Shown here: piece by piece, positions 2,320-47,399 of the stretch
Numbering within the stretch: the first letter of the stretch is position 1
How the letters are laid out: each line of letters starts with the position of its first letter
From: Escherichia coli
Lineage (GTDB): Bacteria > Pseudomonadota > Gammaproteobacteria > Enterobacterales > Enterobacteriaceae
DNA length: 64,000 nucleotides
Assembly (NCBI RefSeq): GCF_044647545.1
Contig: NZ_CP172818.1
Direction: 5' to 3' (one strand)
Made by a program: the position numbers and the translations under genes
The notes under the pieces: model-generated
The model's input: only the letters and a program-made list of their open reading frames with translations
Told to the model about the DNA's origin: nothing
Database searches by the model: none

Positions 2320-4164
2320 ATGATTAAAAAAGCTTCGCTGCTGACGGCGTGTTCTGTCACAGCCTTTTCTGCTTGGGCACAGGATACCAGCCCGGATACT
2401 CTCGTCGTTACTGCTAACCGTTTTGAACAGCCGCGCAGCACTGTGCTTGCACCAACCACCGTTGTGACCCGTCAGGATATTGACCGCTGGCAGTCGACCT
2501 CGGTCAATGATGTGCTGCGCCGTCTTCCGGGTGTCGATATCACCCAAAACGGCGGTTCAGGTCAGCTCTCATCTATTTTTATTCGCGGTACAAATGCCAG
2601 TCATGTGCTGGTGTTAATTGATGGCGTCCGCCTGAATCTGGCGGGAGTGAGTGGTTCTGCCGACCTTAGCCAGTTCCCTATTGCGCTTGTCCAGCGTATT
2701 GAATATATCCGTGGACCGCGCTCCGCTGTTTATGGTTCCGATGCAATAGGCGGGGTGGTGAATATCATCACGACGCGCGATGAACCCGGAACGGAAATTT
2801 CAGCAGGGTGGGGAAGCAATAGTTATCAGAACTATGATGTCTCCACGCAGCAACAACTGGGGGATAAGACACGGGTAACGCTGTTGGGCGATTATGCCCA
2901 TACTCATGGTTATGATGTTGTTGCCTATGGTAATACCGGAACGCAAGCGCAGACAGATAACGATGGTTTTTTAAGTAAAACGCTTTATGGCGCGCTGGAG
3001 CATAACTTTACTGATGCCTGGAGCGGCTTTGTGCGCGGCTATGGCTATGATAACCGTACCAATTATGACGCGTATTATTCTCCCGGCTCACCGTTGCTCG
3101 ATACCCGTAAACTCTATAGCCAAAGTTGGGACGCCGGGCTGCGCTATAACGGCGAACTGATTAAATCACAACTCATTACCAGCTATAGCCATAGCAAAGA
3201 TTACAACTACGATCCCCATTATGGTCGTTATGATTCGTCCGCGACGCTGGATGAGATGAAGCAATACACCGTCCAGTGGGCAAACAATGTCATCGTTGGT
3301 CACGGTAGTATTGGTGCGGGTGTCGACTGGCAGAAACAGACTACGACGCCGGGTACAGGTTATGTTGAGGATGGATATGATCAACGTAATACCGGCATCT
3401 ATCTGACCGGGCTGCAACAAGTCGGCGATTTTACCTTTGAAGGCGCAGCACGCAGCGACGATAACTCACAGTTTGGTCGTCATGGAACCTGGCAAACGAG
3501 TGCCGGTTGGGAATTCATCGAAGGCTATCGTTTTATCGCTTCTTATGGCACGTCGTACAAGGCACCTAATCTTGGGCAACTGTATGGTTTCTACGGAAAT
3601 CCGAATCTGAATCCTGAGAAAAGCAAACAGTGGGAAGGCGCGTTTGAAGGCTTAACCGCTGGGGTGAACTGGCGTATTTCCGGATATCGTAACGATGTCA
3701 GTGATTTGATCGATTATGATGATCACACCCTGAAATATTACAACGAAGGGAAAGCGCGGATTAAGGGGGTCGAGGCGACCGCCAATTTTGATACCGGACC
3801 ACTGACGCATACTGTGAGTTATGATTATGTCGATGCGCGTAATGCGATTACCGACGTGCCGTTGTTACGCCGTGCTAAACAGCAGGTGAAATACCAGCTC
3901 GACTGGCAATTGTATGACTTCGACTGGGGTATTACTTATCAGTATTTAGGCACTCGCTATGATAAGGATTACTCATCTTATCCTTATCAAACCGTTAAAA
4001 TGGGCGGTGTGAGCTTGTGGGATCTTGCGGTTGCGTATCCGGTCACCTCTCATCTGACAGTTCGTGGTAAAATAGCCAACCTGTTCGACAAAGATTATGA
4101 GACAGTCTATGGCTACCAAACTGCAGGACGGGAATACACCTTGTCTGGCAGCTACACCTTCTGA
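2320..4164 (+). CDS. btuB: TonB-dependent outer-membrane vitamin B12 receptor BtuB, 614 aa
   Basis: ORF track 2275..4164; true start taken at ATG 2320 ([20 protein letters not shown] signal peptide, TonB box DTLVVTANR); C-terminal aromatic residue typical of beta-barrel. Confidence 0.95.
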
Positions 4165-7034: not shown

Positions 7035-7229
7035 CTTGCTGGTTTGTGAGTGAAAGTCACCTGCCTTAATATCTCAAAACTCATCTTCGGGTGACGTTTG
7101 AGATATTTGCTCTTTAAAAATCTGGATCAAGCTGAAAATTGAAACACTGAATAGTCGAAAGATTATTCGTGAGTCTCTCAAATTTTCGCAACACGATGAT
7201 GAATCGAAAGAAACATCTTCGGGTTGTGA

Positions 7230-10479: not shown

Positions 10480-11508
10480 ATGAACCACTCCTTAAAACCC
10501 TGGAACACATTTGGCATTGATCATAATGCTCAGCACATTGTATGTGCCGAAGACGAACAACAACTACTCAATGCCTGGCAGCATGCAACCGCAAAAGGAC
10601 AATCCGTTCTTATTCTGGGTGAAGGAAGTAATGTACTTTTTCTGGAAGACTATCGCGGTACGGTGATCATCAACCGGATCAAAGGTATCGAAATTCATGA
10701 TGAACCTGATGCGTGGTATTTACATGTAGGAGCCGGAGAAAACTGGCATCGCCTGGTAAAATACACTTTGCAGGAAGGTATGCCTGGTCTGGAAAATCTG
10801 GCATTAATTCCTGGTTGTGTCGGCTCATCACCTATCCAGAATATTGGTGCTTATGGCGTAGAATTACAGCGAGTTTGCGCTTATGTTGACTGTGTTGAAC
10901 TGGCGACAGGCAAGCAAGTGCGCTTAACTGCCAAAGAGTGCCGTTTTGGCTATCGCGACAGTGTTTTTAAACATGAATACCAGGACCGCTTCGCCATTGT
11001 AGCCGTAGGTCTGCGTCTGCCAAAAGAGTGGCAACCTGTACTAACGTATGGTGACTTAACTCGTCTGGATCCTACAACCGTAACGCCACAGCAAGTATTT
11101 AATGCGGTGTGTCATATGCGCACCACCAAACTCCCTGATCCAAAAGTGAATGGCAATGCCGGTAGTTTCTTCAAAAACCCTGTTGTATCTGCCGAAACGG
11201 CTAAAGCATTACTGGCACAATTTCCAACAGCACCAAATTATCCCCAGGCGGATGGTTCAGTAAAACTGGCAGCAGGTTGGCTTATCGATCAGTGCCAGCT
11301 AAAAGGGATGCAAATGGGTGGGGCTGCGGTGCACCGTCAACAGGCGTTAGTCCTCATTAATGAAGACAATGCAAAAAGCGAAGATGTGGTGCAACTGGCA
11401 CATCATGTAAGACAAAAAGTGGGTGAAAAATTTAATGTCTGGCTTGAGCCTGAAGTTCGCTTTATTGGTGCATCAGGTGAAGTTAGCGCAGTGGAGACGA
11501 TTTCATGA
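10480..11508 (+). CDS. murB: UDP-N-acetylenolpyruvoylglucosamine reductase MurB, 342 aa
   Basis: ORF track; full-length MurB. Confidence 0.95.
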
Positions 11509-12470
11509 AGGATAATACCGTTCCGCTGAAATTAATCGCGCTGTTAGCGAATGGCGAATTTCACTCTGGTGAGCAGTTGGGTGAAACGTTAGGAATGAGC
11601 CGGGCGGCTATTAATAAACACATTCAGACACTGCGTGACTGGGGCGTTGATGTCTTTACCGTTCCGGGTAAAGGATACAGCCTGCCTGAGCCTATCCAGT
11701 TACTTAATGCTGAACAGATATTGGGTCAGCTGGATGGCGGTAGTGTAACTGTGCTACCCGTTATTGACTCCACGAATCAGTACCTTCTTGATCGTATCGG
11801 AGAGCTTAAATCGGGCGATGCCTGTGTTGCAGAATACCAGCAGGCTGGCCGTGGTCGCCGGGGTCGGAAATGGTTTTCGCCTTTTGGCGCAAACTTATAT
11901 TTGTCGATGTTCTGGCGTCTGGAACAAGGCCCGGCGGCGGCGATTGGTTTAAGTCTGGTTATCGGTATCGTGATGGCGGAAGTATTACGCAAGCTGGGTG
12001 CAGATAAAGTTCGTGTTAAATGGCCTAATGACCTCTATCTGCAGGATCGCAAGCTGGCAGGCATTCTTGTGGAGCTGACTGGTAAAACCGGCGATGCGGC
12101 GCAAATAGTCATTGGAGCCGGGATCAACATGGCAATGCGTCGTGTTGAAGAGAGTGTCGTTAATCAGGGGTGGATCACGCTGCAGGAAGCGGGGATCAAT
12201 CTCGATCGTAATACGTTGGCGGCCATGCTAATACGTGAATTACGCGCGGCGCTGGAACTCTTCGAACAAGAAGGATTGGCACCTTATCTTTCGCGCTGGG
12301 AAAAGCTGGATAATTTTATTAATCGCCCAGTGAAACTTATCATTGGTGATAAAGAAATATTTGGCATTTCACGCGGAATAGACAAACAGGGCGCTTTATT
12401 GCTTGAGCAGGATGGAATAATAAAACCCTGGATGGGCGGTGAAATATCCCTGCGTAGTGCAGAAAAATAA
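11505..12470 (+). CDS. birA: Biotin-protein ligase / bio operon repressor BirA, 321 aa
   Basis: ORF track; N-terminal HTH plus ligase core (GRGRRGR motif); 4-nt overlap with murB stop. Confidence 0.95.
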
Positions 12471-15780: not shown

Positions 15781-16164
15781 ATGAGTGCGAATACCGAAGC
15801 TCAAGGAAGCGGGCGCGGCCTGGAAGCGATGAAGTGGGTCGTTGTGGTGGCATTGCTCCTGGTGGCGATTGTCGGCAACTATCTTTATCGCGACATTATG
15901 CTGCCGCTGCGTGCGCTGGCCGTAGTAATTCTGATTGCTGCAGCGGGTGGTGTCGCGCTGTTAACGACAAAAGGTAAAGCTACCGTTGCTTTTGCCCGTG
16001 AAGCGCGTACCGAAGTCCGTAAGGTCATTTGGCCGACTCGCCAGGAAACATTGCACACCACGCTGATTGTGGCTGCGGTTACCGCAGTAATGTCACTGAT
16101 CCTGTGGGGACTGGATGGTATTCTGGTTCGCCTGGTATCCTTTATCACTGGCCTGAGGTTCTGA
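15781..16164 (+). CDS. secE: Protein translocase subunit SecE, 127 aa
   Basis: ORF track; three-TM protein; immediately upstream of nusG. Confidence 0.95.
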
Positions 16165-16165
16165 G

Positions 16166-16711
16166 ATGTCTGAAGCTCCTAAAAAGCGCTGGTACGTCGT
16201 TCAGGCGTTTTCCGGTTTTGAAGGCCGCGTAGCAACGTCGCTGCGTGAGCATATCAAATTACACAACATGGAAGATTTGTTTGGTGAAGTCATGGTACCA
16301 ACCGAAGAAGTGGTTGAAATCCGTGGCGGTCAGCGTCGCAAAAGCGAACGTAAATTCTTCCCTGGCTACGTCCTCGTTCAGATGGTGATGAACGACGCGA
16401 GCTGGCACCTGGTGCGCAGCGTACCGCGTGTGATGGGCTTCATCGGCGGTACTTCCGATCGTCCTGCACCAATCAGCGATAAAGAAGTCGATGCGATTAT
16501 GAACCGCCTGCAGCAGGTTGGTGATAAGCCGCGTCCGAAAACGCTGTTTGAACCGGGTGAAATGGTCCGTGTTAATGATGGTCCGTTCGCTGACTTCAAC
16601 GGTGTTGTTGAAGAAGTGGATTACGAGAAATCTCGTCTGAAAGTGTCTGTTTCTATCTTCGGTCGTGCGACCCCGGTAGAGCTGGACTTCAGCCAGGTTG
16701 AAAAAGCCTAA
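16166..16711 (+). CDS. nusG: Transcription termination/antitermination factor NusG, 181 aa
   Basis: ORF track; NGN and KOW domains. Confidence 0.96.
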
Positions 16712-16806: not shown

Positions 16807-18006
<1,200 letters not shown>

Positions 18007-19227: not shown

Positions 19228-19245
19228 GCCAACCCTTCCGGTTGC

Positions 19246-19298
19246 AGCCTGAGAAATCAGGCTGATGGCTGGTGACTTTTTAGTCACCAGCCTTTTTG
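19246..19298 (+). terminator. rplL-rpoB intercistronic attenuator (partial terminator)
   Basis: Two hairpins CAGCCTGA-GAAA-TCAGGCTG and GGCTGGTGAC-TTTTTA-GTCACCAGCC followed by TTTTTG. Confidence 0.8.
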
Positions 19299-27875: not shown

Positions 27876-27896
27876 TCGTTAATCCGCAAATAACGT

Positions 27897-27922
27897 AAAA
27901 ACCCGCTTCGGCGGTTTTTTTA
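27897..27922 (+). terminator. rpoC intrinsic terminator
   Basis: AAAAACCCGC-TTCG-GCGGTTTTTTT. Confidence 0.8.
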
Positions 27923-28108
27923 AACAAATCCAGACTTTGCTTCACGGGAAATATTAAGAAAGGCAGGGCGAAACGAGGAAGAAGCTTTTCGCCCTGGACA
28001 ACATTCCTGCTGACGGCACTACCATAAAAAAACACAACGCTTTCAACAACCTTGCGTTTTTCATCTTCCGTAGCGGCTCGGAATAAATTTACGTTGTTAC
28101 ATTCTGTT

Positions 28109-29242
28109 TCATGGCCTTTGCGAGGCGCGTCCCAGATAGCTGTCCCAGTCTTTCCATACCGGCTGCAAACCCTGAGCAGTTAACGCGGCAGCAACCGCTT
28201 CCGGTCTGCGATCGTCGTGCGGTGAGAACTGTTCCAGCTCGGGGTGATTGTCGGCATAGCCACCTGGCTGCGTTTTCGAAAAAGCGCTGACGTTATTAAT
28301 TGCCAGCGGAATCACGCGATCGCGAAACCACGGTGATTCCCGCGTGGAGAGTGACAGTTCAATCTCCGGTGCAAGCAGTCGGAAGGCGCAGATGGTTTGC
28401 ACTAACTGGCGTTCATCCATAATCGACGCAGGCTCAATGCCGCCAGTACATGGACGCAGGCGTGGGAAGGAGACAGAGTAGCGGCTTTGCCAGTAATGCT
28501 GTTGCAGCCATAGCAAATGTTCTGCAACCATATAGCAGTCAACGCGCCAGCTGTCGGAAAGGCCAATTAGCGCGCCGAGGCCTATCTTATCAATCCCCGC
28601 ACGGCCCAGCCGATCCGGCGTTTCCAGCCGCCAGAAGAAGTCCTGTTTTTTGCCTTTCAGATGATGGCGGGCATAAGTCGCCTCGTGATATGTCTCCTGA
28701 TAAACCATCACGCCATCGAGACCCAGCTGTTTTAGCTCGGCATATTCCGCCTCCGCCAGCGGTTGCACTTCCATCTGTAGTGAAGAGAACTGTTCACGCA
28801 GGGCAGGGAGATGACGACGAAAGTAATCCATCCCCACTTTCGCCTGATGTTCACCAGTGACTAAAAGCAGATGTTCAAAGCCCATCTCCCGTATAGCGGC
28901 GCTTTCCCTGGCAATATCCGCTTCATCCAGTGTTTTGCGCTTGATGCGATTGCTCATGGAAAATCCGCAGTACGTGCAGTCGTTAGCGCAAAGATTGGAA
29001 AGATAAAGCGGGACGTAGAAACTAACTGTGTTGCCAAATCGCTGACGGGTCAGACGCTGCGCTCGCTGGGCCAGTGGTTCCAGATAGCCACTGGCGGCGG
29101 GTGATAGCAATGCCATCATGTCGTCGCGGGTGAGTTGCGAGGCATTTAGCGCCCGCTCTACGTCAGCAGCCGTTTTGCCGTTGATACGCAGGCGGATGTC
29201 GTCCCAGTCCAGTTGTCGCCAGCGATCGCTGAAGGTTTTCAT
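28109..29242 (-). CDS. thiH: 2-iminoacetate synthase ThiH (radical SAM), 377 aa
   Basis: ORF track; CxxxCxxC radical-SAM cysteine cluster (CANDCTYC). Confidence 0.95.
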
Positions 29243-30009
29243 GCAGATGCCTCCAGAAATCCAGTCAGCGGGCTGGTGGCATGAGCAAAATGACTGCGGC
29301 TGCCCGGTCCGGACTGACGTGCCAGCAGGCCTGCTTCTACCGCCAGACGAAATGCCTTCGCCATGTTGACGGGATCGTCCGCGACGGCAATCGCCGTATT
29401 CACTAACACCGCGTCGGCCCCCATTTCCAGCGCCTGCGCGGCATGGCTGGGAACGCCGATGCCAGCATCGACAACCACCGGAACCGTGGCCTGCTGGATA
29501 ATAATCTCCAGCATGGCGCGGGTTTCCAGTCCCTGATTCGAGCCAATCGGCGCGCCGAGCGGCATCACCGCTGCACAGCCGACTTCTTCCAGACGTTTAC
29601 ACAATACCGGATCGGCCCCGCAGTAAGGCAGCACGACAAATCCCTGTTGTACCAGCGTTTCGGCGGCTTTCAGGGTTTCGATGGGATCGGGCAACAGCCA
29701 GCGGGCGTCAGGGTGAATCTCCAATTTTAGCCAGTTTGCGCCTAACGCTTCACGTGCCAGATGGGCAGCAAAGATCGCTTCTTCCGCAGTTTTCGCTCCG
29801 GAAGTATTCGGCAGCAGTGTTACACCCGCCGCGATAAGTGGTTCGAGGATAGCGTCGTTGTGCTGGCGCAAGTCGACACGTTTCATCGCCAGCGTCACCA
29901 GTTGGCTGCCGGAAGCGCGAATAGACTCCACCATCAGTTGTGAAGAGGCGAATTTTCCGGTGCCAGTAAACAGATGTGAATCAAACGTTTTGTCCGCAAT
30001 ATGTAACAT
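29239..30009 (-). CDS. thiG: Thiazole synthase ThiG, 256 aa
   Basis: ORF track 29239..30267; start set at ATG 30009 ([20 protein letters not shown]...). Confidence 0.93.
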
Positions 30010-30010
30010 C

Positions 30011-30211
30011 TCAACCCCCTGCAATAACCTGAAAAAGCAGGATCTGGTCGCCATCCTGCACGATATGTTGCGCCCACTGCTCACGCGGGACGATTTGCTG
30101 ATTAATCGCCAGAGCCGCGCCCGCTTGTCGTTGGTCGAGTTGCTCCAGCAGTTCGTGAACCGTTTGCCCGGCGGCGCACTGCATCGGTTGATCGTTAAAC
30201 AGGATCTGCAT
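30011..30211 (-). CDS. thiS: Sulfur-carrier protein ThiS, 66 aa
   Basis: ORF track 30011..30238; start at ATG 30211 ([11 protein letters not shown]...), C-terminal GG. Confidence 0.92.
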
Positions 30212-30950
30212 TGCTTCCTCCGCATACCGGGCAACCACTGGCGCGGCGCAAAGCCAGGCTGCGCCACTGGCTCGACTTACCGTCGAACAGTCGGAGTTCT
30301 CCCGCAGGCGTCTCTATACCGCTTAATAACTTAATGGCTTCCAGGGCCTGCAAAGTGCCCATAACCCCGACCACCGGGCCAACCACGCCCGCCGTGCGGC
30401 AGTTGCGTTCAGGCTCCTGGTTATCTGGCCACAGGCAGCGGTAACACCCCTGCTCCCAGGGCGGCGTCAGTACCATCAACTGACCGCCAAATCCGACCGC
30501 GCTGGCGGTGATAAGCGGTGTGTTGAGTGCCACGCAGGCGGCATTAATCTCCTGGCGAGTCGCCATATTGTCGGTACAGTCGAGCACCACATCGGCTTGT
30601 GCAACCGCATCTTTTAACGTCTCACCCGTTAATCGTTGTTGTAATGCCATCAGTTGAATGTCGGGATTCAACTGTGTCAGTCGCTGATGGCTGACCTGTG
30701 ATTTCGGGCGATCGATATCTTCAGTGGTAAAGAGGATTTGTCGTTGCAGATTGCTTAAATGCACATCGTCGTCATCTGCCAGTACCAGCGTCCCGACGCC
30801 AGCCCCCGCCAGGTATAGCGCAGCAGGTGTACCCAGCCCGCCAAGACCAATAATCAGCACCTGGCTGTCGAGCAGTTTTTGCTGCCCGTCCAGAGCGATA
30901 TCGTCGAGCAGGATTTGGCGGCTATAACGCATAAAGTCACGGTCATTCAT
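30195..30950 (-). CDS. thiF: ThiS adenylyltransferase ThiF, 251 aa
   Basis: ORF track 30195..31043; start at ATG 30950 ([15 protein letters not shown]...), GxGxxG nucleotide loop. Confidence 0.93.
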
Positions 30951-31577
30951 CGCCAGCTCCTGCAATTTCCAGCAACTGTGCCGTTGCCAAACGCCAGTCT
31001 GCGGCTTGAGTAATGGCGCTGACGACGGCGATACTGCCGACACCCGTTGCTATCACCTCAGGCGCGCGCGCCAGACTGATACCGCCAATCGCCACGGTGG
31101 GATAATCCACCAGGCGCTCAACATGCCGTGCCAGCTGTTCCAGCCCCTGCGGTGCGGAAGGCATCTGTTTGGTTTGTGTCGGAAACACATGTCCCAGCGC
31201 GATATAAGAAGGATGTGCCGCCAGCGCGACGTCGATTTCCATATCATCATGTGTCGAAACGCCCAGTCGCAGACCTGCCGCGCGGATGGCGCTGAGATCG
31301 GTGGCTTGCAAATCTTCCTGCCCCAAATGGACGCCGTATGCTTGATGCTTGATCGCCAGCCGCCAGTAATCATTAATAAACAATCGCGCGTTATAGCGGC
31401 GGCCCAGCGCAATTGCCGCCACCACATCGGCTTCTACCTCTTCATCGCGCCGATCTTTGATGCGTAGCTGGAGAGTACGTACGCCTGCATCCAACAGACG
31501 TTCGATCCACTGTACGCTGTCAACCACCGGGTACAGCCCTAAACGAAAGGGTACAGGAGGAAACTCAGGCTGATACA

Positions 31578-31578
<1 letters not shown>
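30943..31578 (-). CDS. thiE: Thiamine-phosphate synthase ThiE, 211 aa
   Basis: ORF track 30943..31581 (GTG); ATG at 31578 preferred ([20 protein letters not shown]...). Confidence 0.93.
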
Positions 31579-33476
<1,898 letters not shown>

Positions 33477-33539
33477 TCATTCCAAAAAGTTAAGGACGTG
33501 GCTTGTCAGACGACGGATGAAGCAAGAGACGATCGCCGC

Positions 33540-33650
33540 AAAGGCGATGCGATAGCAGATTAACTCTTGTTCCCTTCGCAGGTATTAGCCTGATCAGGTT
33601 CCGCGGATCCCGAATAAACGGTCTCAGCCAGTTAAGGCACTCCGACAAGA
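33540..33650 (-). promoter_or_regulatory. TPP riboswitch (thi box) in thiC leader
   Basis: Reverse complement reads ...GGCTGAGACCG...GGGATCCGCGGAACCTGATCAGGCTAATACCTGCGAAGGGAACAAG..., the conserved THI-element core, ~100 nt upstream of thiC start. Confidence 0.8.
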
Positions 33651-33705
33651 AATTAGCCCCGCAAACGGGGCGTTGAATGTAAATTACGCGTTAACAGCGC
33701 AGAAC

Positions 33706-34182
33706 TCAAGCAGGATGTTTGACGCGGGCGGCGTCAAGCACCAGCAGAATCAGCTTATCTTCCAGCACAAAGCGCGCTTCCAGGGCCTCGCCGATGTCAG
33801 ATAAAACCTGTTGAAACTCAAGGTAATTATCATGATCGATAGCGGTTTCCAGGCTGGAATCGTAGTAATCCATAATCTGTTGGGTATTGGCTTCGAGTTG
33901 TGGCCAAATCTTCGCGGCGCGTGCGAGTTGCCCATTGCCTTCCAGTTTATGAAGAATGCGCTCATAAATACTGAAATGTCCGGCAGACAAGTAATCGACC
34001 AGGCTCTGACAAAAATCATCAAGGGCTTTTTCGTTTAGCCTCATGTACGATTCTTTGCCAGGCTTAATGCCAACCAGATTGTAGTAAGCCACGAGCAGAT
34101 GCTTACGTACATGTAGCCAGCGATCAACCAGTTTGTTACTTCCTCTGACGCGCTCCGTCAGGTTATCGAGCTGGTTAAGCAT
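33706..34182 (-). CDS. rsd: Regulator of sigma D (anti-sigma70) Rsd, 158 aa
   Basis: ORF track. Confidence 0.93.
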   Translation of the reverse strand: MLNQLDNLTERVRGSNKLVDRWLHVRKHLLVAYYNLVGIKPGKESYMRLNEKALDDFCQSLVDYLSAGHFSIYERILHKLEGNGQLARAAKIWPQLEANTQQIMDYYDSSLETAIDHDNYLEFQQVLSDIGEALEARFVLEDKLILLVLDAARVKHPA

Positions 34183-34276
34183 GATTGACTCCGCAAGTTT
34201 GTATTCAAAAACTGCTCAGTGAGAAATGTAAAAACCATGTTAAACATGCCAGTGATGCAAAGGTAGTGCAAGAGTT

Positions 34277-35050
34277 ATGGATCGTATAATTGAAAAATTA
34301 GATCACGGCTGGTGGGTCGTCAGCCATGAACAAAAATTATGGTTGCCGAAGGGAGAATTGCCATATGGCGAAGCGGCAAATTTCGATCTTGTGGGTCAGC
34401 GCGCACTACAAATCGGCGAATGGCAGGGGGAACCTGTTTGGTTAGTACAACAGCAGCGGCGTCACGATATGGGGTCGGTACGTCAGGTCATTGATCTCGA
34501 TGTTGGGCTGTTTCAACTGGCCGGACGAGGCGTACAACTGGCGGAGTTTTACCGATCGCATAAATACTGTGGTTACTGCGGGCATGAAATGTATCCAAGC
34601 AAAACCGAATGGGCGATGCTGTGCAACCATTGCCGTGAGCGTTACTACCCGCAAATCGCCCCCTGCATTATTGTTGCCATCCGTCGCGATGATTCGATCC
34701 TCCTCGCCCAGCATACCCGCCATCGTAACGGTGTCCATACGGTACTTGCCGGATTCGTCGAAGTGGGCGAAACCCTCGAGCAGGCTGTCGCGCGGGAAGT
34801 GATGGAAGAGAGCGGAATTAAAGTTAAAAACTTGCGTTACGTGACTTCCCAGCCGTGGCCGTTTCCTCAGTCTTTAATGACCGCGTTTATGGCGGAATAT
34901 GACAGCGGCGAGATCGTGATCGACCCGAAAGAATTGCTTGAGGCGAACTGGTATCGCTATGACGATTTGCCGTTACTCCCGCCGCCCGGCACCGTAGCGC
35001 GCCGTCTGATAGAAGATACAGTGGCGATGTGTCGGGCAGAGTATGAGTGA
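34277..35050 (+). CDS. nudC: NADH pyrophosphatase (Nudix) NudC, 257 aa
   Basis: ORF track; zinc-ribbon cysteines and Nudix box. Confidence 0.94.
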
Positions 35051-38636: not shown

Positions 38637-39062
38637 TTACCAGTGGCCCATACCCATATGACCGCCACCACCGCAGCCGCCGTAGCCCATGCCCATTCCG
38701 GCTCCGCGCGGAATACCCGCTTCAGCCATCGCAATATCTCGTTTCACCCGTAACTCATCTAACGACTGACGCAAATTCTCCATCTCTTTGGCGACCGCGT
38801 TAATTTTGCTGCTATCCGGTGGGTTCGCGGCTAACAGGGCATTGTATTCATAACGCTTCGTCACCAGTTGCTGTTGCAGTGCGCTGCTTTGAGCGTAAAA
38901 GTCATTATGGATTTTCTGCCACGCTGTCTGTTGTTCGCTGGTCAAAGGCGCGGCATTTTGCTGCCACATACCATGTCCGCCGTGAGCAAATGCCGATGTC
39001 GATCCCATCGCCATTGCTGAAAGCGCCATCATTACCAGGGCAATTTTCGTGTTCCGTTTCAT
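38637..39062 (-). CDS. zraP: Zinc-resistance-associated periplasmic protein ZraP, 141 aa
   Basis: ORF track 38637..39203; start set to ATG 39062 (MKRNTKIALVMMALSAMAMGSTSAFA signal peptide); Gly/His/Met-rich C-terminus. Confidence 0.92.
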   Translation of the reverse strand: MKRNTKIALVMMALSAMAMGSTSAFAHGGHGMWQQNAAPLTSEQQTAWQKIHNDFYAQSSALQQQLVTKRYEYNALLAANPPDSSKINAVAKEMENLRQSLDELRVKRDIAMAEAGIPRGAGMGMGYGGCGGGGHMGMGHW

Positions 39063-39096
39063 GGTTAATCCTCCAGTGGTTGTCTTACTTCGGGTA

Positions 39097-39113
39097 TTGC
39101 ATCTTCCGTGCCA
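39097..39113 (-). promoter_or_regulatory. sigma54 (-24/-12) promoter of zraP
   Basis: Reverse complement TGGCACGGAAGATGCAA matches TGGCAC-N5-TTGCA. Confidence 0.75.
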
Positions 39114-39155
39114 ACGGCGAAACGCTGATATGACGGGTAATCTGGCATGATAAAC

Positions 39156-39201
39156 GAGTAAAAATGACTCGCCTGCTGCGGGTAGCGAGTCATTTTTACT
39201 C
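39156..39201. promoter_or_regulatory. ZraR enhancer sites: two 17-bp inverted repeats in the zraP-zraS divergent region
   Basis: GAGTAAAAATGACTCGC (39156-39172) and its exact reverse complement GCGAGTCATTTTTACTC (39185-39201). Confidence 0.75.
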
Positions 39202-39252
39202 ATTGAAACTTAAGCCTTTGTGTTACAGCGCAGGGTAAGCGCTGATAAAAGA

Positions 39253-39299: not shown

Positions 39300-40676
39300 A
39301 TGCGTTTTATGCAACGTTCTAAAGATTCCTTAGCTAAATGGTTAAGCGCGATCCTCCCCGTGGTCATTGTTGGGCTGGTGGGGCTGTTTGCGGTGACAGT
39401 GATTCGCGATTATGGGCGCGAGACTGCCGCCGCCAGACAAACGCTGCTGGAAAAAGGCAGTGTACTTATTCGCGCTCTTGAATCCGGCTCGCGCGTCGGT
39501 ATGGGGATGCGCATGCATCATGCGCAGCAGCAGGCCTTACTGGAAGAAATGGCCGGGCAGCCTGGAGTACGTTGGTTTGCGGTCACGGATGAACAAGGAA
39601 CAATCGTGATGCATAGCAACTCCGGCATGGTGGGAAAACAGCTTTATTCCCCGCAGGAAATGCAGCAGTTACATCCGGGAGATGAAGAAGCGTGGCGGCG
39701 GATCGATAGCGCAGACGGCGAGCCTGTTCTGGAAATTTATCGCCAGTTTCAACCGATGTTTGCTGCTGGAATGCACCGGATGCGCCATATGCAGCAATAT
39801 GCCGCGACACCACAAGCAATTTTCATTGCTTTCGACGCCAGTAACATTGTGAGTGCCGAAGATCGTGAGCAGAGAAATACCCTGATTATCCTCTTCGCCC
39901 TGGCGACGGTCTTGCTGGCAAGCGTGTTGTCATTCTTCTGGTATCGTCGCTATCTGCGCTCGCGCCAGTTGTTGCAGGATGAAATGAAGCGCAAAGAGAA
40001 GCTGGTGGCGCTGGGGCATCTTGCGGCAGGTGTTGCCCACGAAATCCGTAACCCACTTTCCTCGATTAAAGGACTGGCGAAATACTTTGCCGAACGCGCG
40101 CCAGCAGGGGGAGAAGCGCATCAACTGGCGCAGGTGATGGCGAAAGAAGCCGACCGTTTAAACCGCGTGGTAAGCGAGTTGCTGGAACTGGTTAAGCCAA
40201 CGCATCTGGCTTTGCAGGCGGTGGATCTCAACACGCTGATTAACCACTCATTACAGCTGGTAAGCCAGGATGCAAACAGCCGGGAGATCCAGTTACGCTT
40301 TACCGCCAACGACACATTACCGGAAATTCAGGCCGATCCGGACAGGCTGACTCAGGTCCTGTTGAATCTCTATCTCAATGCCATTCAGGCTATTGGTCAG
40401 CATGGCGTGATTAGCGTTGTGGCAAATGAAAGCGGAGCGGGCGTGAAAATCAGCGTTACCGACAGCGGTAAGGGAATTGCGGCAGATCAGCTTGAAGCCA
40501 TCTTCACCCCGTACTTCACCACCAAAGCCGAAGGTACCGGACTGGGGCTGGCGGTCGTGCATAATATTGTTGAACAACACGGTGGTACAATTCAGGTCGC
40601 AAGCCAGGAGGGAAAAGGCGCAACGTTCACCCTTTGGCTTCCGGTCAATATTACGCGTAAGGACCCACAAGGATGA
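39300..40676 (+). CDS. zraS: Sensor histidine kinase ZraS, 458 aa
   Basis: ORF track; HEIRNPL H-box and ATPase G-boxes. Confidence 0.94.
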   Translation: MRFMQRSKDSLAKWLSAILPVVIVGLVGLFAVTVIRDYGRETAAARQTLLEKGSVLIRALESGSRVGMGMRMHHAQQQALLEEMAGQPGVRWFAVTDEQGTIVMHSNSGMVGKQLYSPQEMQQLHPGDEEAWRRIDSADGEPVLEIYRQFQPMFAAGMHRMRHMQQYAATPQAIFIAFDASNIVSAEDREQRNTLIILFALATVLLASVLSFFWYRRYLRSRQLLQDEMKRKEKLVALGHLAAGVAHEIRNPLSSIKGLAKYFAERAPAGGEAHQLAQVMAKEADRLNRVVSELLELVKPTHLALQAVDLNTLINHSLQLVSQDANSREIQLRFTANDTLPEIQADPDRLTQVLLNLYLNAIQAIGQHGVISVVANESGAGVKISVTDSGKGIAADQLEAIFTPYFTTKAEGTGLGLAVVHNIVEQHGGTIQVASQEGKGATFTLWLPVNITRKDPQG

Positions 40677-41998
40677 CGCACGATAATATCGATATTCTGG
40701 TGGTGGATGATGACATTAGCCACTGCACTATTTTGCAGGCTTTGCTGCGCGGCTGGGGCTATAACGTGGCGCTTGCGAACAGCGGGCGACAGGCGCTGGA
40801 GCAGGTGCGGGAACAGGTTTTTGATCTTGTGCTTTGCGATGTGCGAATGGCAGAGATGGACGGCATCGCCACGCTCAAAGAGATCAAAGCGTTAAATCCG
40901 GCAATTCCGGTACTGATTATGACCGCGTACTCCAGCGTCGAGACGGCGGTAGAGGCGTTGAAAACCGGGGCGCTGGATTATCTCATCAAGCCGCTGGATT
41001 TCGATAACCTGCAGGCGACGCTGGAAAAGGCGCTCGCACATACGCACAGTGTTGACGCTGAAACGCCTGCGGTGTCTGCCAGCCAGTTCAGTATGGTCGG
41101 TAAAAGCCCGGCGATGCAACACCTGCTCAGTGAAATCGCCCTCGTCGCGCCATCGGAAGCCACGGTGCTGATCCACGGCGATTCCGGCACCGGTAAAGAG
41201 CTGGTCGCCAGGGCGATTCACGCCAGTAGCGCACGTAGCGAAAAACCGCTGGTAACGCTCAACTGCGCGGCGCTCAACGAATCCTTGCTGGAGTCTGAAT
41301 TGTTCGGTCACGAAAAAGGGGCGTTTACCGGGGCCGACAAACGCCGGGAAGGGCGCTTTGTTGAGGCGGACGGCGGCACGTTGTTTCTCGATGAAATTGG
41401 CGATATCTCGCCGATGATGCAGGTGCGTCTGCTACGTGCGATTCAGGAGCGCGAAGTTCAGCGTGTCGGTAGCAACCAGACTATTTCGGTTGATGTCCGG
41501 CTGATTGCGGCGACCCATCGCGATCTTGCCGCAGAGGTGAATGCCGGGCGTTTTCGCCAGGATCTCTACTATCGCCTGAACGTGGTGGCGATTGAAGTAC
41601 CATCGCTGCGTCAGCGGCGGGAAGATATTCCTCTGCTGGCAAACCATTTTCTTCAGCGCTTTGCCGAGCGTAATCGCAAGGCGGTAAAAGGTTTTACGCC
41701 CCAGGCGATGGATCTGCTGATTCACTACGACTGGCCGGGAAATATTCGTGAACTGGAAAACGCGGTGGAACGGGCGGTGGTGCTGCTGACCGGGGAATAT
41801 ATTTCCGAACGCGAGCTGCCGCTGGCGATTGCGAGTACGCCGATCCCGCTGGTACAAAGTCAGGATATTCAGCCGCTGGTGGAAGTCGAAAAAGAGGTGA
41901 TTCTTGCGGCACTGGAGAAAACGGGCGGCAACAAAACCGAAGCCGCCCGTCAGTTAGGGATCACGCGCAAAACGCTCTTGGCAAAACTGTCGCGTTAG
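40673..41998 (+). CDS. zraR: sigma54-dependent response regulator ZraR (NtrC family), 441 aa
   Basis: ORF track; receiver domain, AAA+ Walker [15 protein letters not shown] motif, C-terminal HTH. Confidence 0.95.
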
Positions 41999-43284
41999 TT
42001 CTGCTCGCGTTCGATAGCGCGCCAGCCGATATCTTTCCGGCAGAAGCAGTCGTCCCAATGGATATCGGTCATTAAGGCATAAGCGCGTTTCTGCGCTTCT
42101 GCCACGGTATGACCCAGCGCGGTGACGCACAGTACGCGCCCGCCGCTGGTCACTACCTGCTCGTCATCCGCCAGTTTCGTGCCAGCGTGGAACACTTTGC
42201 CGTCAGACACTTCTTCCAGCGGCAGGCCGTGGATCACATCGCCGGTGCGGTAATCGCCCGGATATCCACCCGCAGCCATCACCACGCCGAGAGAAGCGCG
42301 TTCATCCCACTCGGACGTTTTCTCGTCCAGCTTGCCTTCACAGGCCGCCAGGCAAAGCTCAACCAGATCGGACTTCATGCGCAGCATAATCGGCTGGGTT
42401 TCTGGATCGCCAAAGCGGCAGTTAAATTCAATAACCTTCGGATTGCCCTGTTTGTCGATCATCAGGCCCGCGTAGAGAAAACCAGTGTAGGTGTTGCCTT
42501 CTGCCGCCATGCCTTTCACGGTTGGCCAGATGATTCGTTCCATCGTGCGCTGATGAACCTCATCGGTCACTACTGGCGCAGGGGAGTAAGCGCCCATCCC
42601 GCCGGTGTTCGGCCCGGTATCTTTATCGCCTACGCGTTTGTGATCCTGGCTGGTGGCCATCGGCAGCACATGCTCGCCGTCTACCATCACGATAAAGCTC
42701 GCTTCTTCGCCGTCGAGGAACTCTTCGATAACAATGCGATGCCCCGCGTCGCCAAACGCGTTGCCCGCCAGCATATCGTGAACAGCCGCTTCCGCTTCTT
42801 CCAGCGTCATCGCTACGATAACGCCTTTCCCGGCAGCCAGACCGTCAGCTTTAATGACGATTGGCGCGCCTTTCTCACGCAGATACGCCAGCGCAGGTTC
42901 TACCTCGGTGAAGTTCTGGTATTCCGCCGTAGGGATCTTATGGCGGGCCAGGAAATCTTTGGTAAACGCTTTTGAGCCTTCCAGTTGGGCCGCACCTGCG
43001 GTTGGGCCGAAGATTTTCAGCCCGGCGGCGCGGAAGGTATCAACCACGCCTTTCACCAGCGGCGCTTCCGGGCCGACGATGGTTAGATCTACCTTTTCGT
43101 TTTGTGCGAAATCCAGCAGCGCCGGGATATCGGTTACGCCGATATCGACGTTTTGCAGTGCAGGTTCCAGCGCAGTGCCTGCGTTACCCGGAGCAACAAA
43201 AACAGTTTCAACCAGCGGCGACTGCGCCGCTTTCCAGGCCAGCGCGTGCTCGCGCCCGCCATTACCGATCACTAATACTTTCAT
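41995..43284 (-). CDS. purD: Phosphoribosylamine-glycine ligase PurD, 429 aa
   Basis: ORF track 41995..43296; start set at ATG 43284 (MKVLVIGNGGREHALAWK...). Confidence 0.95.
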   Translation of the reverse strand: MKVLVIGNGGREHALAWKAAQSPLVETVFVAPGNAGTALEPALQNVDIGVTDIPALLDFAQNEKVDLTIVGPEAPLVKGVVDTFRAAGLKIFGPTAGAAQLEGSKAFTKDFLARHKIPTAEYQNFTEVEPALAYLREKGAPIVIKADGLAAGKGVIVAMTLEEAEAAVHDMLAGNAFGDAGHRIVIEEFLDGEEASFIVMVDGEHVLPMATSQDHKRVGDKDTGPNTGGMGAYSPAPVVTDEVHQRTMERIIWPTVKGMAAEGNTYTGFLYAGLMIDKQGNPKVIEFNCRFGDPETQPIMLRMKSDLVELCLAACEGKLDEKTSEWDERASLGVVMAAGGYPGDYRTGDVIHGLPLEEVSDGKVFHAGTKLADDEQVVTSGGRVLCVTALGHTVAEAQKRAYALMTDIHWDDCFCRKDIGWRAIEREQN

Positions 43285-47204: not shown

Positions 47205-47399
47205 CTTGCTGGTTTGTGAGTGAAAGTCACCTGCCTTAATATCTCAAAACTCATCTTCGGGTGACGTTTGAGATATTTGCTCTTTAAAAATCTGGATCAA
47301 GCTGAAAATTGAAACACTGAATAGTCGAAAGATTATTCGTGAGTCTCTCAAATTTTCGCAACACGATGATGAATCGAAAGAAACATCTTCGGGTTGTGA

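Follow-up and report, generated by a model that had tools for sequence, protein, structure and literature searches.

Coding overlaps between consecutive genes of the Escherichia coli thiCEFSGH operon and of neighbouring gene pairs

Consecutive genes share coding sequence along the thiCEFSGH operon of Escherichia coli and in neighbouring gene pairs. The overlaps at the thi junctions are real and conserved, and we consider it probable that they are genuine overlaps of consecutive cistrons in compact operons, and neither annotation errors nor a special device. They are part of the ordinary, already known packing of bacterial operons, for which translational coupling is the textbook reading. By analogy with gene pairs studied elsewhere, coupling is plausible at the junctions with spacings of -8 to +1 nt (negative values denote overlaps), and thiF/thiS is the pair where it would be least expected, because this junction lies at -17 and coupling decays with overlap length. 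Any coupling, its strength at the individual junctions and its physiological purpose are what we infer from this arrangement.

Genes and junctions of the thi operon and its neighbourhood

The window, i.e. the whole 64,000-nt stretch of E. coli DNA analysed here, carries fabR, yijD, trmA, btuB, murI, rrnB, murB, birA, coaA, four tRNAs, tuf, secE, nusG, rplKAJL and rpoBC, followed by thiHGSFEC (minus strand), rsd, nudC, hemE, nfi, yjaG, hupA, yjaH, zraP, zraSR, purDH (minus strand), rrnE, yjaB, metA, aceBAK, iclR, metH, yjbB and pepE. This order is that of the RefSeq/PGAP annotation, transferred from a strain that is 100% identical over positions 28000-34300. In the strain studied, yjaZ is absent between rpoC and thiH. 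Several sequenced E. coli chromosomes are 100% identical to the window over the 6.3-kb thi region, and at least 80% of this region is present in 5,419 of 5,426 complete E. coli genomes.

All six thi genes lie on the minus strand. The first gene of the operon, thiC (31578-33473; 631 aa; stop TGA at 31580-31578), is supported by the ORF list, RefSeq and the Pfam families ThiC_Rad_SAM and ThiC-associated, and is preceded by a TPP riboswitch aptamer (33554-33654, minus strand), which matched Rfam RF00059 with 74.8 bits (gathering score 54.3) and is also annotated in RefSeq. This riboswitch is the control point of the whole operon. Downstream follow thiE (30943-31578; 211 aa; ORF list, RefSeq, Pfam TMP-TENI), thiF (30195-30950; 251 aa; RefSeq, Pfam ThiF, with PDB 1ZUD and 1ZFN aligning over the full length) and thiS (30011-30211), a 66-aa protein with a Gly-Gly end that is present in the ORF list and RefSeq, matches Pfam ThiS over residues 3-66 and aligns with PDB 1F0Z and 1ZUD over residues 1-66. 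The operon is completed by thiG (29239-30009; 256 aa; ORF list, RefSeq, Pfam ThiG) and, as its last gene, thiH (28109-29242; 377 aa; ORF list, RefSeq, Pfam Radical_SAM and BATS). The six proteins thus occur in the enterobacterial thiCEFSGH order by Pfam, with the TPP riboswitch in front (Rfam RF00059) and in agreement with RefSeq. That these genes form a single transcript is assumed from publications in which the operon is named; where their coding regions overlap, no space is left for an intergenic terminator or promoter.

At the thiC/thiE junction (31576-31590, minus strand), a Shine-Dalgarno (SD) sequence GGAGG (31590-31586) and a 7-nt spacer precede TGATG, in which the thiC stop (31580-31578) and the thiE ATG (31578-31576) share one nucleotide (spacing -1). 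A GTG at 31581 could serve as an alternative thiE start, which would turn this junction into a GTGA, -4 layout. At thiE/thiF (30943-30961, minus strand), the SD AGGAG (30961-30957) is followed by ATGAATGA (30943-30950), which contains both the thiF ATG (30950-30948) and the thiE TGA (30945-30943) and gives an 8-nt overlap. The longest overlap of the operon, 17 nt at thiF/thiS (30195-30211, minus strand), extends from the thiS ATG (30211-30209) to the thiF TAA (30197-30195); the thiS SD GGAGG (30217-30221, minus strand) lies 5 nt upstream of the ATG and is encoded by the Gly244-Gly245 codons of thiF. At thiS/thiG (30007-30019, minus strand), a G-rich SD GGGGG (30019-30015), formed by the ThiS Gly65-Gly66 codons, is followed by the thiS TGA (30013-30011), a single spacer nucleotide G and the thiG ATG (30009-30007), resulting in a spacing of +1. 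Finally, thiG and thiH (29239-29254, minus strand) overlap by 4 nt in an ATGA (29242-29239), with the SD GGAGG at 29254-29250 and a 7-nt spacer.

The initial annotation had reported overlaps of 1 nt at thiC/thiE (31578), 17 nt at thiF/thiS and 4 nt at thiG/thiH, all of which are present in the sequence, with identical starts and stops in RefSeq. Its description of overlaps throughout the operon holds for four of the five junctions, including the 8-nt thiE/thiF overlap that it did not list, but not for thiS/thiG with its 1-nt spacer. The 4-nt overlaps that it gave for two plus-strand pairs outside the operon were likewise found in the sequence and in RefSeq, and both pairs stand at -4 in the K-12 table discussed below: murB (10480-11508) and birA (11505-12470) share the ATGA at 11505-11508, with GGAGA 7 nt upstream of the ATG, and zraS (39300-40676) and zraR (40673-41998) share the ATGA at 40673-40676. 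Sequence and RefSeq also agree with its convergent overlapping stop codons of zraR and purD, a TTAG at 41995-41998 that comprises the zraR TAG (41996-41998, plus strand) and the purD TAA (41997-41995, minus strand), so that 4 nt are common to the coding regions and 2 nt to the stop codons. No terminator-like hairpin was found around this site within 41400-42600 (600 nt on each side). The zraR/purD overlap only shows two transcription units without intergenic space and has no bearing on translational coupling.

Start codons, spacing and conservation of the overlaps

The co-directional overlaps depend on correctly assigned start codons. Predicted starts are often wrong, and in thiS an in-frame Met10 follows after the thiF stop; the overlaps might be annotation artefacts that vanish once the true starts are placed further downstream. 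We give this reading next to no credence. The thiS ATG was kept in 79 of 79 usable Enterobacterales loci, in which residues 1-7 are conserved as protein (M-x-[IV]-x-[FVLI]-N-D), and several species carry I, L, V, F or Y in place of Met10, the next in-frame Met. The 66-aa ThiS aligns end to end with the same-length PDB chains 1F0Z and 1ZUD, the latter being the solved ThiF-ThiS complex, and the 251-aa ThiF does likewise with 1ZUD. ThiS enters its Pfam domain at residue 3, ZraR (receiver domain) at residue 8 and BirA (HTH domain) at residue 9, i.e. within a few residues of the annotated starts, with which PGAP and the K-12 table concur. Reassignment of the start codons, which the initial annotation had named as the outcome that would remove the overlaps, was rejected on the grounds of the conserved ATG and N-terminus and of the PDB and Pfam alignments, and the overlaps stand.

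The motifs ATGA and TGATG alone are not improbable, and spacing was therefore taken as the better test. The window contains 29 co-directional CDS pairs, among them 8 overlaps, and 10 of the 29 pairs fall within -8 to +6 nt. Compared with 707 of 2,987 unidirectional pairs (24%) in this range across the E. coli genome (PMC10666635), this is no enrichment (p = 0.13). Within the thi operon, this range holds four of the five junctions (p = 0.013), the exception being thiF/thiS at -17. Spacings of -4, -1 and -8 nt are the commonest between co-directional genes of prokaryotes and form the peaks of the E. coli distribution (PMC10666635, PMC12548453).

To what extent the spacings are kept was determined in 80 Enterobacterales species with ThiF identities of 72-96%; all 80 loci belong to one order, and shared ancestry accounts for part of the conservation. 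The thiC/thiE spacing was -1 in all 80 loci and the thiS/thiG spacing +1 in 75 of 76. The other junctions alternated between two states each, with -8 in 66 and -14 in 15 loci for thiE/thiF, -17 in 48 and -20 in 31 of the 79 loci for thiF/thiS, and -4 in 60 and -1 in 15 loci for thiG/thiH. Over 1,695 species, the published median spacing is -4 between ThiE and ThiF, +4 between ThiS and ThiG, and about +2 between ThiG and ThiH.

The best 120 homologues of a plain search were close relatives only, and more distant thi operons were obtained from a search of representative proteins together with eight inspections of gene context. Three hits (P0129, P0132 and P0136) had no thiS downstream and were set aside, two of them lying beside prfA/prmC (MoeB-like) and one after a likely thiE. 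In five operons with ThiF identities of 48-62%, whose ThiS N-termini support the called starts, the thiF/thiS spacing was -17, -10, -4, +13 and -20. What is conserved is the close junction directly behind the CxxC motif, rather than the 17-nt overlap per se.

Ribosome-binding sites, stop codons and the ThiF tail

At all five thi junctions, a conserved SD lies inside the last codons of the upstream gene. The mean energy of the SD duplex with the 16S tail ranged from -7 to -11 kcal/mol at the five internal starts, compared with -3.3 kcal/mol at thiC in the window, with a mean of -11 kcal/mol at the thiC/thiE junction and a value of -9.5 kcal/mol for the thiS SD. Two of these sites coincide with functional glycines: the thiS SD sits in the Gly-Gly after the CPVC motif of ThiF, and the thiG SD in the essential C-terminal Gly-Gly of ThiS. 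ThiF Gly244 is encoded by GGA in 75 of 79 loci, as opposed to 9% of the other 1,640 thiF Gly codons, and ThiS Gly65 by GGG or GGA in 76 of 76 loci, as opposed to 32% of the other ThiS Gly codons. The thiS and thiG SD sites are thus kept by synonymous-codon selection on rare purine-rich Gly codons. This preservation is a small addition to what is known of the operon, as is the origin of two of its stop codons.

Conserved codons of the next gene make up the stops of thiE and thiF, namely the codons for ThiF Asn2-Asp3 and ThiS residues 5-7. In the first case, AAT-GAY provides the thiE TGA; in the second, NTT-AAY gives TAA (-17) and NTC-AAT-GAY gives TGA (-20), and the TAA in the window is formed by the Phe5-Asn6 codons of thiS (TTT-AAC). 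Codons 5 and 6 of thiS occurred in the combinations T/AAC (38 loci), T/AAT (10) and C/AAT (31); C/AAC, the sole combination that leaves no stop at codons 5-7, was found in 0 loci, although independence of the two sites would predict about 15. This covariation has a Fisher p of 1e-13, which is not corrected for phylogeny, and involves at least 14 changes of state along a neighbour-joining tree. The argument is weaker than it looks at first sight, since many loci carry a back-up TGA one codon further on and loss of the thiF stop would cost little. For recoding or refactoring of thiF or thiS, the GGA-GGN and the TTT-AAC or AAT-GAY codons are worth keeping.

These parts, i.e. the strong SD written in rare Gly codons, the thiS start that precedes the thiF stop by 14-17 nt and the stop that is never lost from thiS codons 5-7, can be assembled into a selected hand-over device, in which the terminating ribosome would first block access to the thiS start and afterwards be caught again by the SD, so that one ThiS would be made per ThiF. 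Were this so, ThiS would be made beside its new E1-like partner, favouring co-translational ThiF-ThiS assembly, and at this natural junction backward reinitiation would work efficiently across an overlap whose length gives little coupling in synthetic reporters. We hold such a device to be very unlikely.

The overlap itself constrains the two proteins little. ThiF residues C240, C243, G244 and G245 are invariant or nearly so, whereas residues 246-251 form a variable tail, in which residues 247-251 reach the 93rd percentile of ThiF variability; the Pfam ThiF domain extends to residue 242 and the alignment with MoeB to residue 244. The third-position entropy of thiS is 1.33 bits inside the overlap and 1.43 bits outside. 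A variable ThiF tail together with free third positions in thiS indicates that the tail is an unconstrained run-on and that the overlap is nearly cost-free.

An unconstrained, variable tail also fits the view that there is no functional coupling, that each gene initiates independently at its own strong SD and that the overlaps are neutral by-products of compaction and stop-codon drift. In line with this, all five internal starts have a strong conserved SD, overlap lengths have switched repeatedly (-17/-20, -8/-14, -4/-1), one distant operon has a +13 gap, and no coupling was seen for bioBF, a native E. coli -4 pair (PMC6728339). However, in the same study four of five native E. coli -4 pairs tested were coupled, and genome-wide spacings are not smoothly distributed but peak sharply at -4, -1 and -8. 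Moreover, a terminating and an initiating ribosome should be unable to share sites 1 to 17 nt apart, which would make some interaction between them unavoidable. Complete independence of the cistrons is therefore unlikely in our estimate.

Translational coupling and comparison with known systems

The initial annotation had considered the overlaps consistent with translational coupling, in particular of the partners ThiF and ThiS and of the sensor-regulator pair ZraS-ZraR. Coupling is currently explained by two models, RNA unfolding and reinitiation (PMC12548453). For termination-reinitiation, a spacing of -8 to +10 is treated as predictive (PMC10666635), and thiC/thiE, thiE/thiF, thiS/thiG, thiG/thiH, murB/birA and zraS/zraR all lie within this range; the thi junctions also join co-directional genes of one transcript, with an SD in the 3' end of the upstream gene, which coupled pairs usually have but do not require. 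In contrast, thiF/thiS falls outside the range, both here (-17) and in the 79 loci (-17 or -20). In reporters, coupling dropped steeply with longer overlap and was absent at -25 (PMC12548453). The part of the claim concerning the short junctions is thus plausible by analogy, given their spacing and the coupled -4 pairs, and the part concerning ThiF-ThiS is its weakest, as this start has a strong SD of its own, no conserved RNA structure and an overlap whose length varies in distant operons. A literature search for coupling in the thi operon (thiS, thiF, thiCEFSGH, overlap) found nothing on these genes, and the entries listed in the supplement of Mori et al. 2021 include one internal ThiS peptide.

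Taken in full, the proposal of the initial annotation would be strict termination-reinitiation at every junction including thiF/thiS, selected for equimolar ThiF:ThiS, ThiG:ThiH and ZraS:ZraR. Several observations speak for it. ThiF-ThiS is a solved complex (PDB 1ZUD), and tight pairs are 4.5-fold enriched for subunits of complexes (PMC10666635). The -17/-20 layout and the SD are conserved in 79 loci without loss of the thiF stop from thiS codons 5-7, and, judging from its footprint size, a ribosome terminating at this stop would cover the thiS start. These points are opposed by the decay of coupling in the reporters and the -8 to +10 range of Huber et al., by the variation of the thiF/thiS overlap in the distant operons and by the lack of an occluding RNA structure at thiS. 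Furthermore, the same ATGA is shared by murB and birA, although MurB and BirA are not known to belong to a common complex. We therefore regard strict coupling at every junction as doubtful.

In the RNA-unfolding model, the downstream start would have to be occluded by structure. RNAalifold over 40 species revealed no conserved structure in the thiS start region (-0.71 kcal/mol, one 4-bp helix, 0 compensatory pairs), and the window sequence around the thiS start folded no better than shuffled controls (z = -0.74). With RNAplfold applied to 64 operons, accessibility percentiles were 0.37-0.62 for the internal starts and 0.84 for thiC; such predicted mid-range accessibility supports neither occlusion nor an especially open site at the internal starts. 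As none of RNAplfold, RNAalifold and single-sequence folding gave a signal, RNA-unfolding coupling at thiS was rejected.

With thiS in the +1 frame relative to thiF, programmed +1 frameshifting at the junction might also produce a fused ThiF-ThiS protein. Upstream of the thiS ATG, no stop interrupts the thiS frame over at least 15 codons, and public assemblies contain single instances of ORFs of 303-312 aa in which ThiF and ThiS are fused. However, these fusions stem from frameshifts or deletions further upstream, through which the CPVC motif is lost, and look like errors or mutants. No slippery codon is conserved before the stop: the final sense codon differs among the 79 loci (GTT, ATT, CTT, CAA), and the stop shifts between -17 and -20. 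In the frameshift layout of prfB the SD lies 3 nt upstream of the stop, compared with about 17 nt upstream of the thiF stop, so the junction does not resemble a prfB-like +1 site. Programmed frameshifting was rejected for lack of a slippery site and because of the origin of the database fusions, and we consider it extremely improbable.

We thus favour overlapping consecutive cistrons in a compact operon, which could work as follows. The thiCEFSGH mRNA is made under control of the TPP riboswitch, and the spacing between each downstream start and the stop before it is between -17 and +1 nt. A ribosome ending one cistron would expose the next start and might be partly re-used there. At the -1, -8, +1 and -4 junctions of the operon and at murB/birA and zraS/zraR, a large part of downstream initiation probably comes from termination-reinitiation. 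At thiS, whose start precedes the thiF stop codon by 14 nt, initiation would probably occur mainly via the strong SD GGAGG, either de novo or after a short backslide of the 30S subunit, which would make coupling weaker. The overlap lengths would be by-products: the upstream frame would run past its last functional residues (CPVCGG in ThiF) to the first out-of-frame stop, which conserved N-terminal codons of the downstream gene provide (NTT-AAY for TAA, AAT-GAY for TGA). Continuous ribosome cover would carry the riboswitch control of thiC along the operon with no untranslated gap.

For K-12, Supplementary Table S2 of Huber et al. 2023 (PMC10666635) lists spacings of -1 for fabR-yijD, -56 for btuB-murI, -4 for murB-birA, -1 for thiC-thiE, -8 for thiE-thiF, -17 for thiF-thiS, +1 for thiS-thiG, -4 for thiG-thiH, -4 for zraS-zraR and +11 for purH-purD. 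As this table gives the exact spacings, the overlaps were already catalogued, and they matter little in themselves, their spacings being common and these E. coli pairs, including thiF/thiS at -17, being tabulated in print.

Among known systems, the RNA-unfolding model of coupling (Brown & Wade) shares with the thi operon its tightly packed co-directional cistrons and differs in the inhibitory structure, which was not found at thiS. The reporters of Tian & Salis with overlaps of -4 to -25 (Brown & Wade review) resemble thiF/thiS in that the downstream start lies upstream of the stop and a backward move of the ribosome is needed; coupling in these reporters fell with overlap and was gone at -25, and the strong native SD of thiS might rescue it at -17 or -20. 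The thiF/thiS pair would be a convenient native case to probe the reach of backward reinitiation. With the overlapping stop-start pairs of Huber et al. 2019/2023 and of Brown & Wade 2025, the junctions studied here share the motifs TGATG (thiC/thiE), ATGA (thiG/thiH, murB/birA, zraS/zraR) and ATGAATGA (thiE/thiF) as well as the SD in the upstream gene; thiF/thiS at -17 lies outside the -8 to +10 range of Huber et al. Compared with the enterobacterial thiCEFSGH operon under a TPP riboswitch, the genes, their order and the riboswitch are all alike, and nothing of substance differs.

Origin of the thiE and thiF stop codons

The minus-strand thi operon contains an 8-nt thiE/thiF overlap (30943-30950) and a 17-nt thiF/thiS overlap (30195-30211). 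In both, AAT-GAY (Asn-Asp) codons at the N-terminal end of the second gene's product, M-N-D in ThiF and F-N-D in ThiS, supply a TGA that is read out of frame as the stop of the gene before it. The stops at these two junctions arise in one common way.

Among the database proteins recovered in the ThiF homologue search (P0003, P0006, P0007, and P0008) were ThiF-ThiS fusion ORFs of 303-312 aa and a ThiE-ThiF fusion ORF of 426 aa, all singletons in public assemblies. These resulted from frameshifts or deletions close to the overlaps; CPVC, the CxxC motif near the ThiF C-terminus, is missing from the ThiF-ThiS fusions. Both types of fusion probably represent sequencing errors or mutant alleles. In one distant, AT-rich thi operon adjoining rpoC (L090; ThiF 49% identical), thiF and thiS do not overlap but lie 13 nt apart, and thiF ends directly after the CxxC motif.

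Further tight junctions and annotated features

Of all co-directional gene pairs in the window, btuB and murI overlap the most (56 nt, 4109-4164, plus strand), with the murI ATG at 4109 and the btuB TGA at 4162-4164. The initial annotation had listed overlaps in the thi operon and at murB/birA, zraS/zraR, and zraR/purD, a list that was incomplete in leaving out this one. Also missing from it were the 1-nt fabR/yijD overlap (452, plus strand) and the gaps of 1 nt between secE and nusG (16164-16166) and 3 nt between rplK and rplA (17298-17302).

A 42-aa hypothetical protein predicted by PGAP (39065-39193, minus strand) ends 2 nt before zraP begins; its frame is not that of the long ORF 38637-39203, which includes zraP. 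Rfam features, all on the plus strand, comprised a cobalamin riboswitch upstream of btuB (2065-2254), P26 in the rplL-rpoB intergenic region (19232-19293), and StyR-44 in the tRNA-Glu/23S rRNA gene interval of each of two rRNA operons (7112-7222 and 47282-47392).

Comparison with K-12

The K-12 spacings of Huber et al. (Supplementary Table S2, PMC10666635) likewise give -56 for btuB/murI. In the same table, neither thiF-thiS nor thiG-thiH is classed as a pair coding for subunits of a complex, which for thiF-thiS is at odds with the ThiF-ThiS complex in PDB 1ZUD. Because this pair was scored as non-complex despite 1ZUD, the enrichment of complexes among tight pairs in that study is conservative.

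Only 1,634 of 5,420 E. coli genomes contain a match covering 80% or more of the short rpoC-thiH spacer (27876-28108). Strain FDAARGOS_497, otherwise identical to the window, differs from it in this spacer (96% identity, 8-nt length difference). Whereas K-12 carries yjaZ (htrC) between rpoC and thiH, the window has none.
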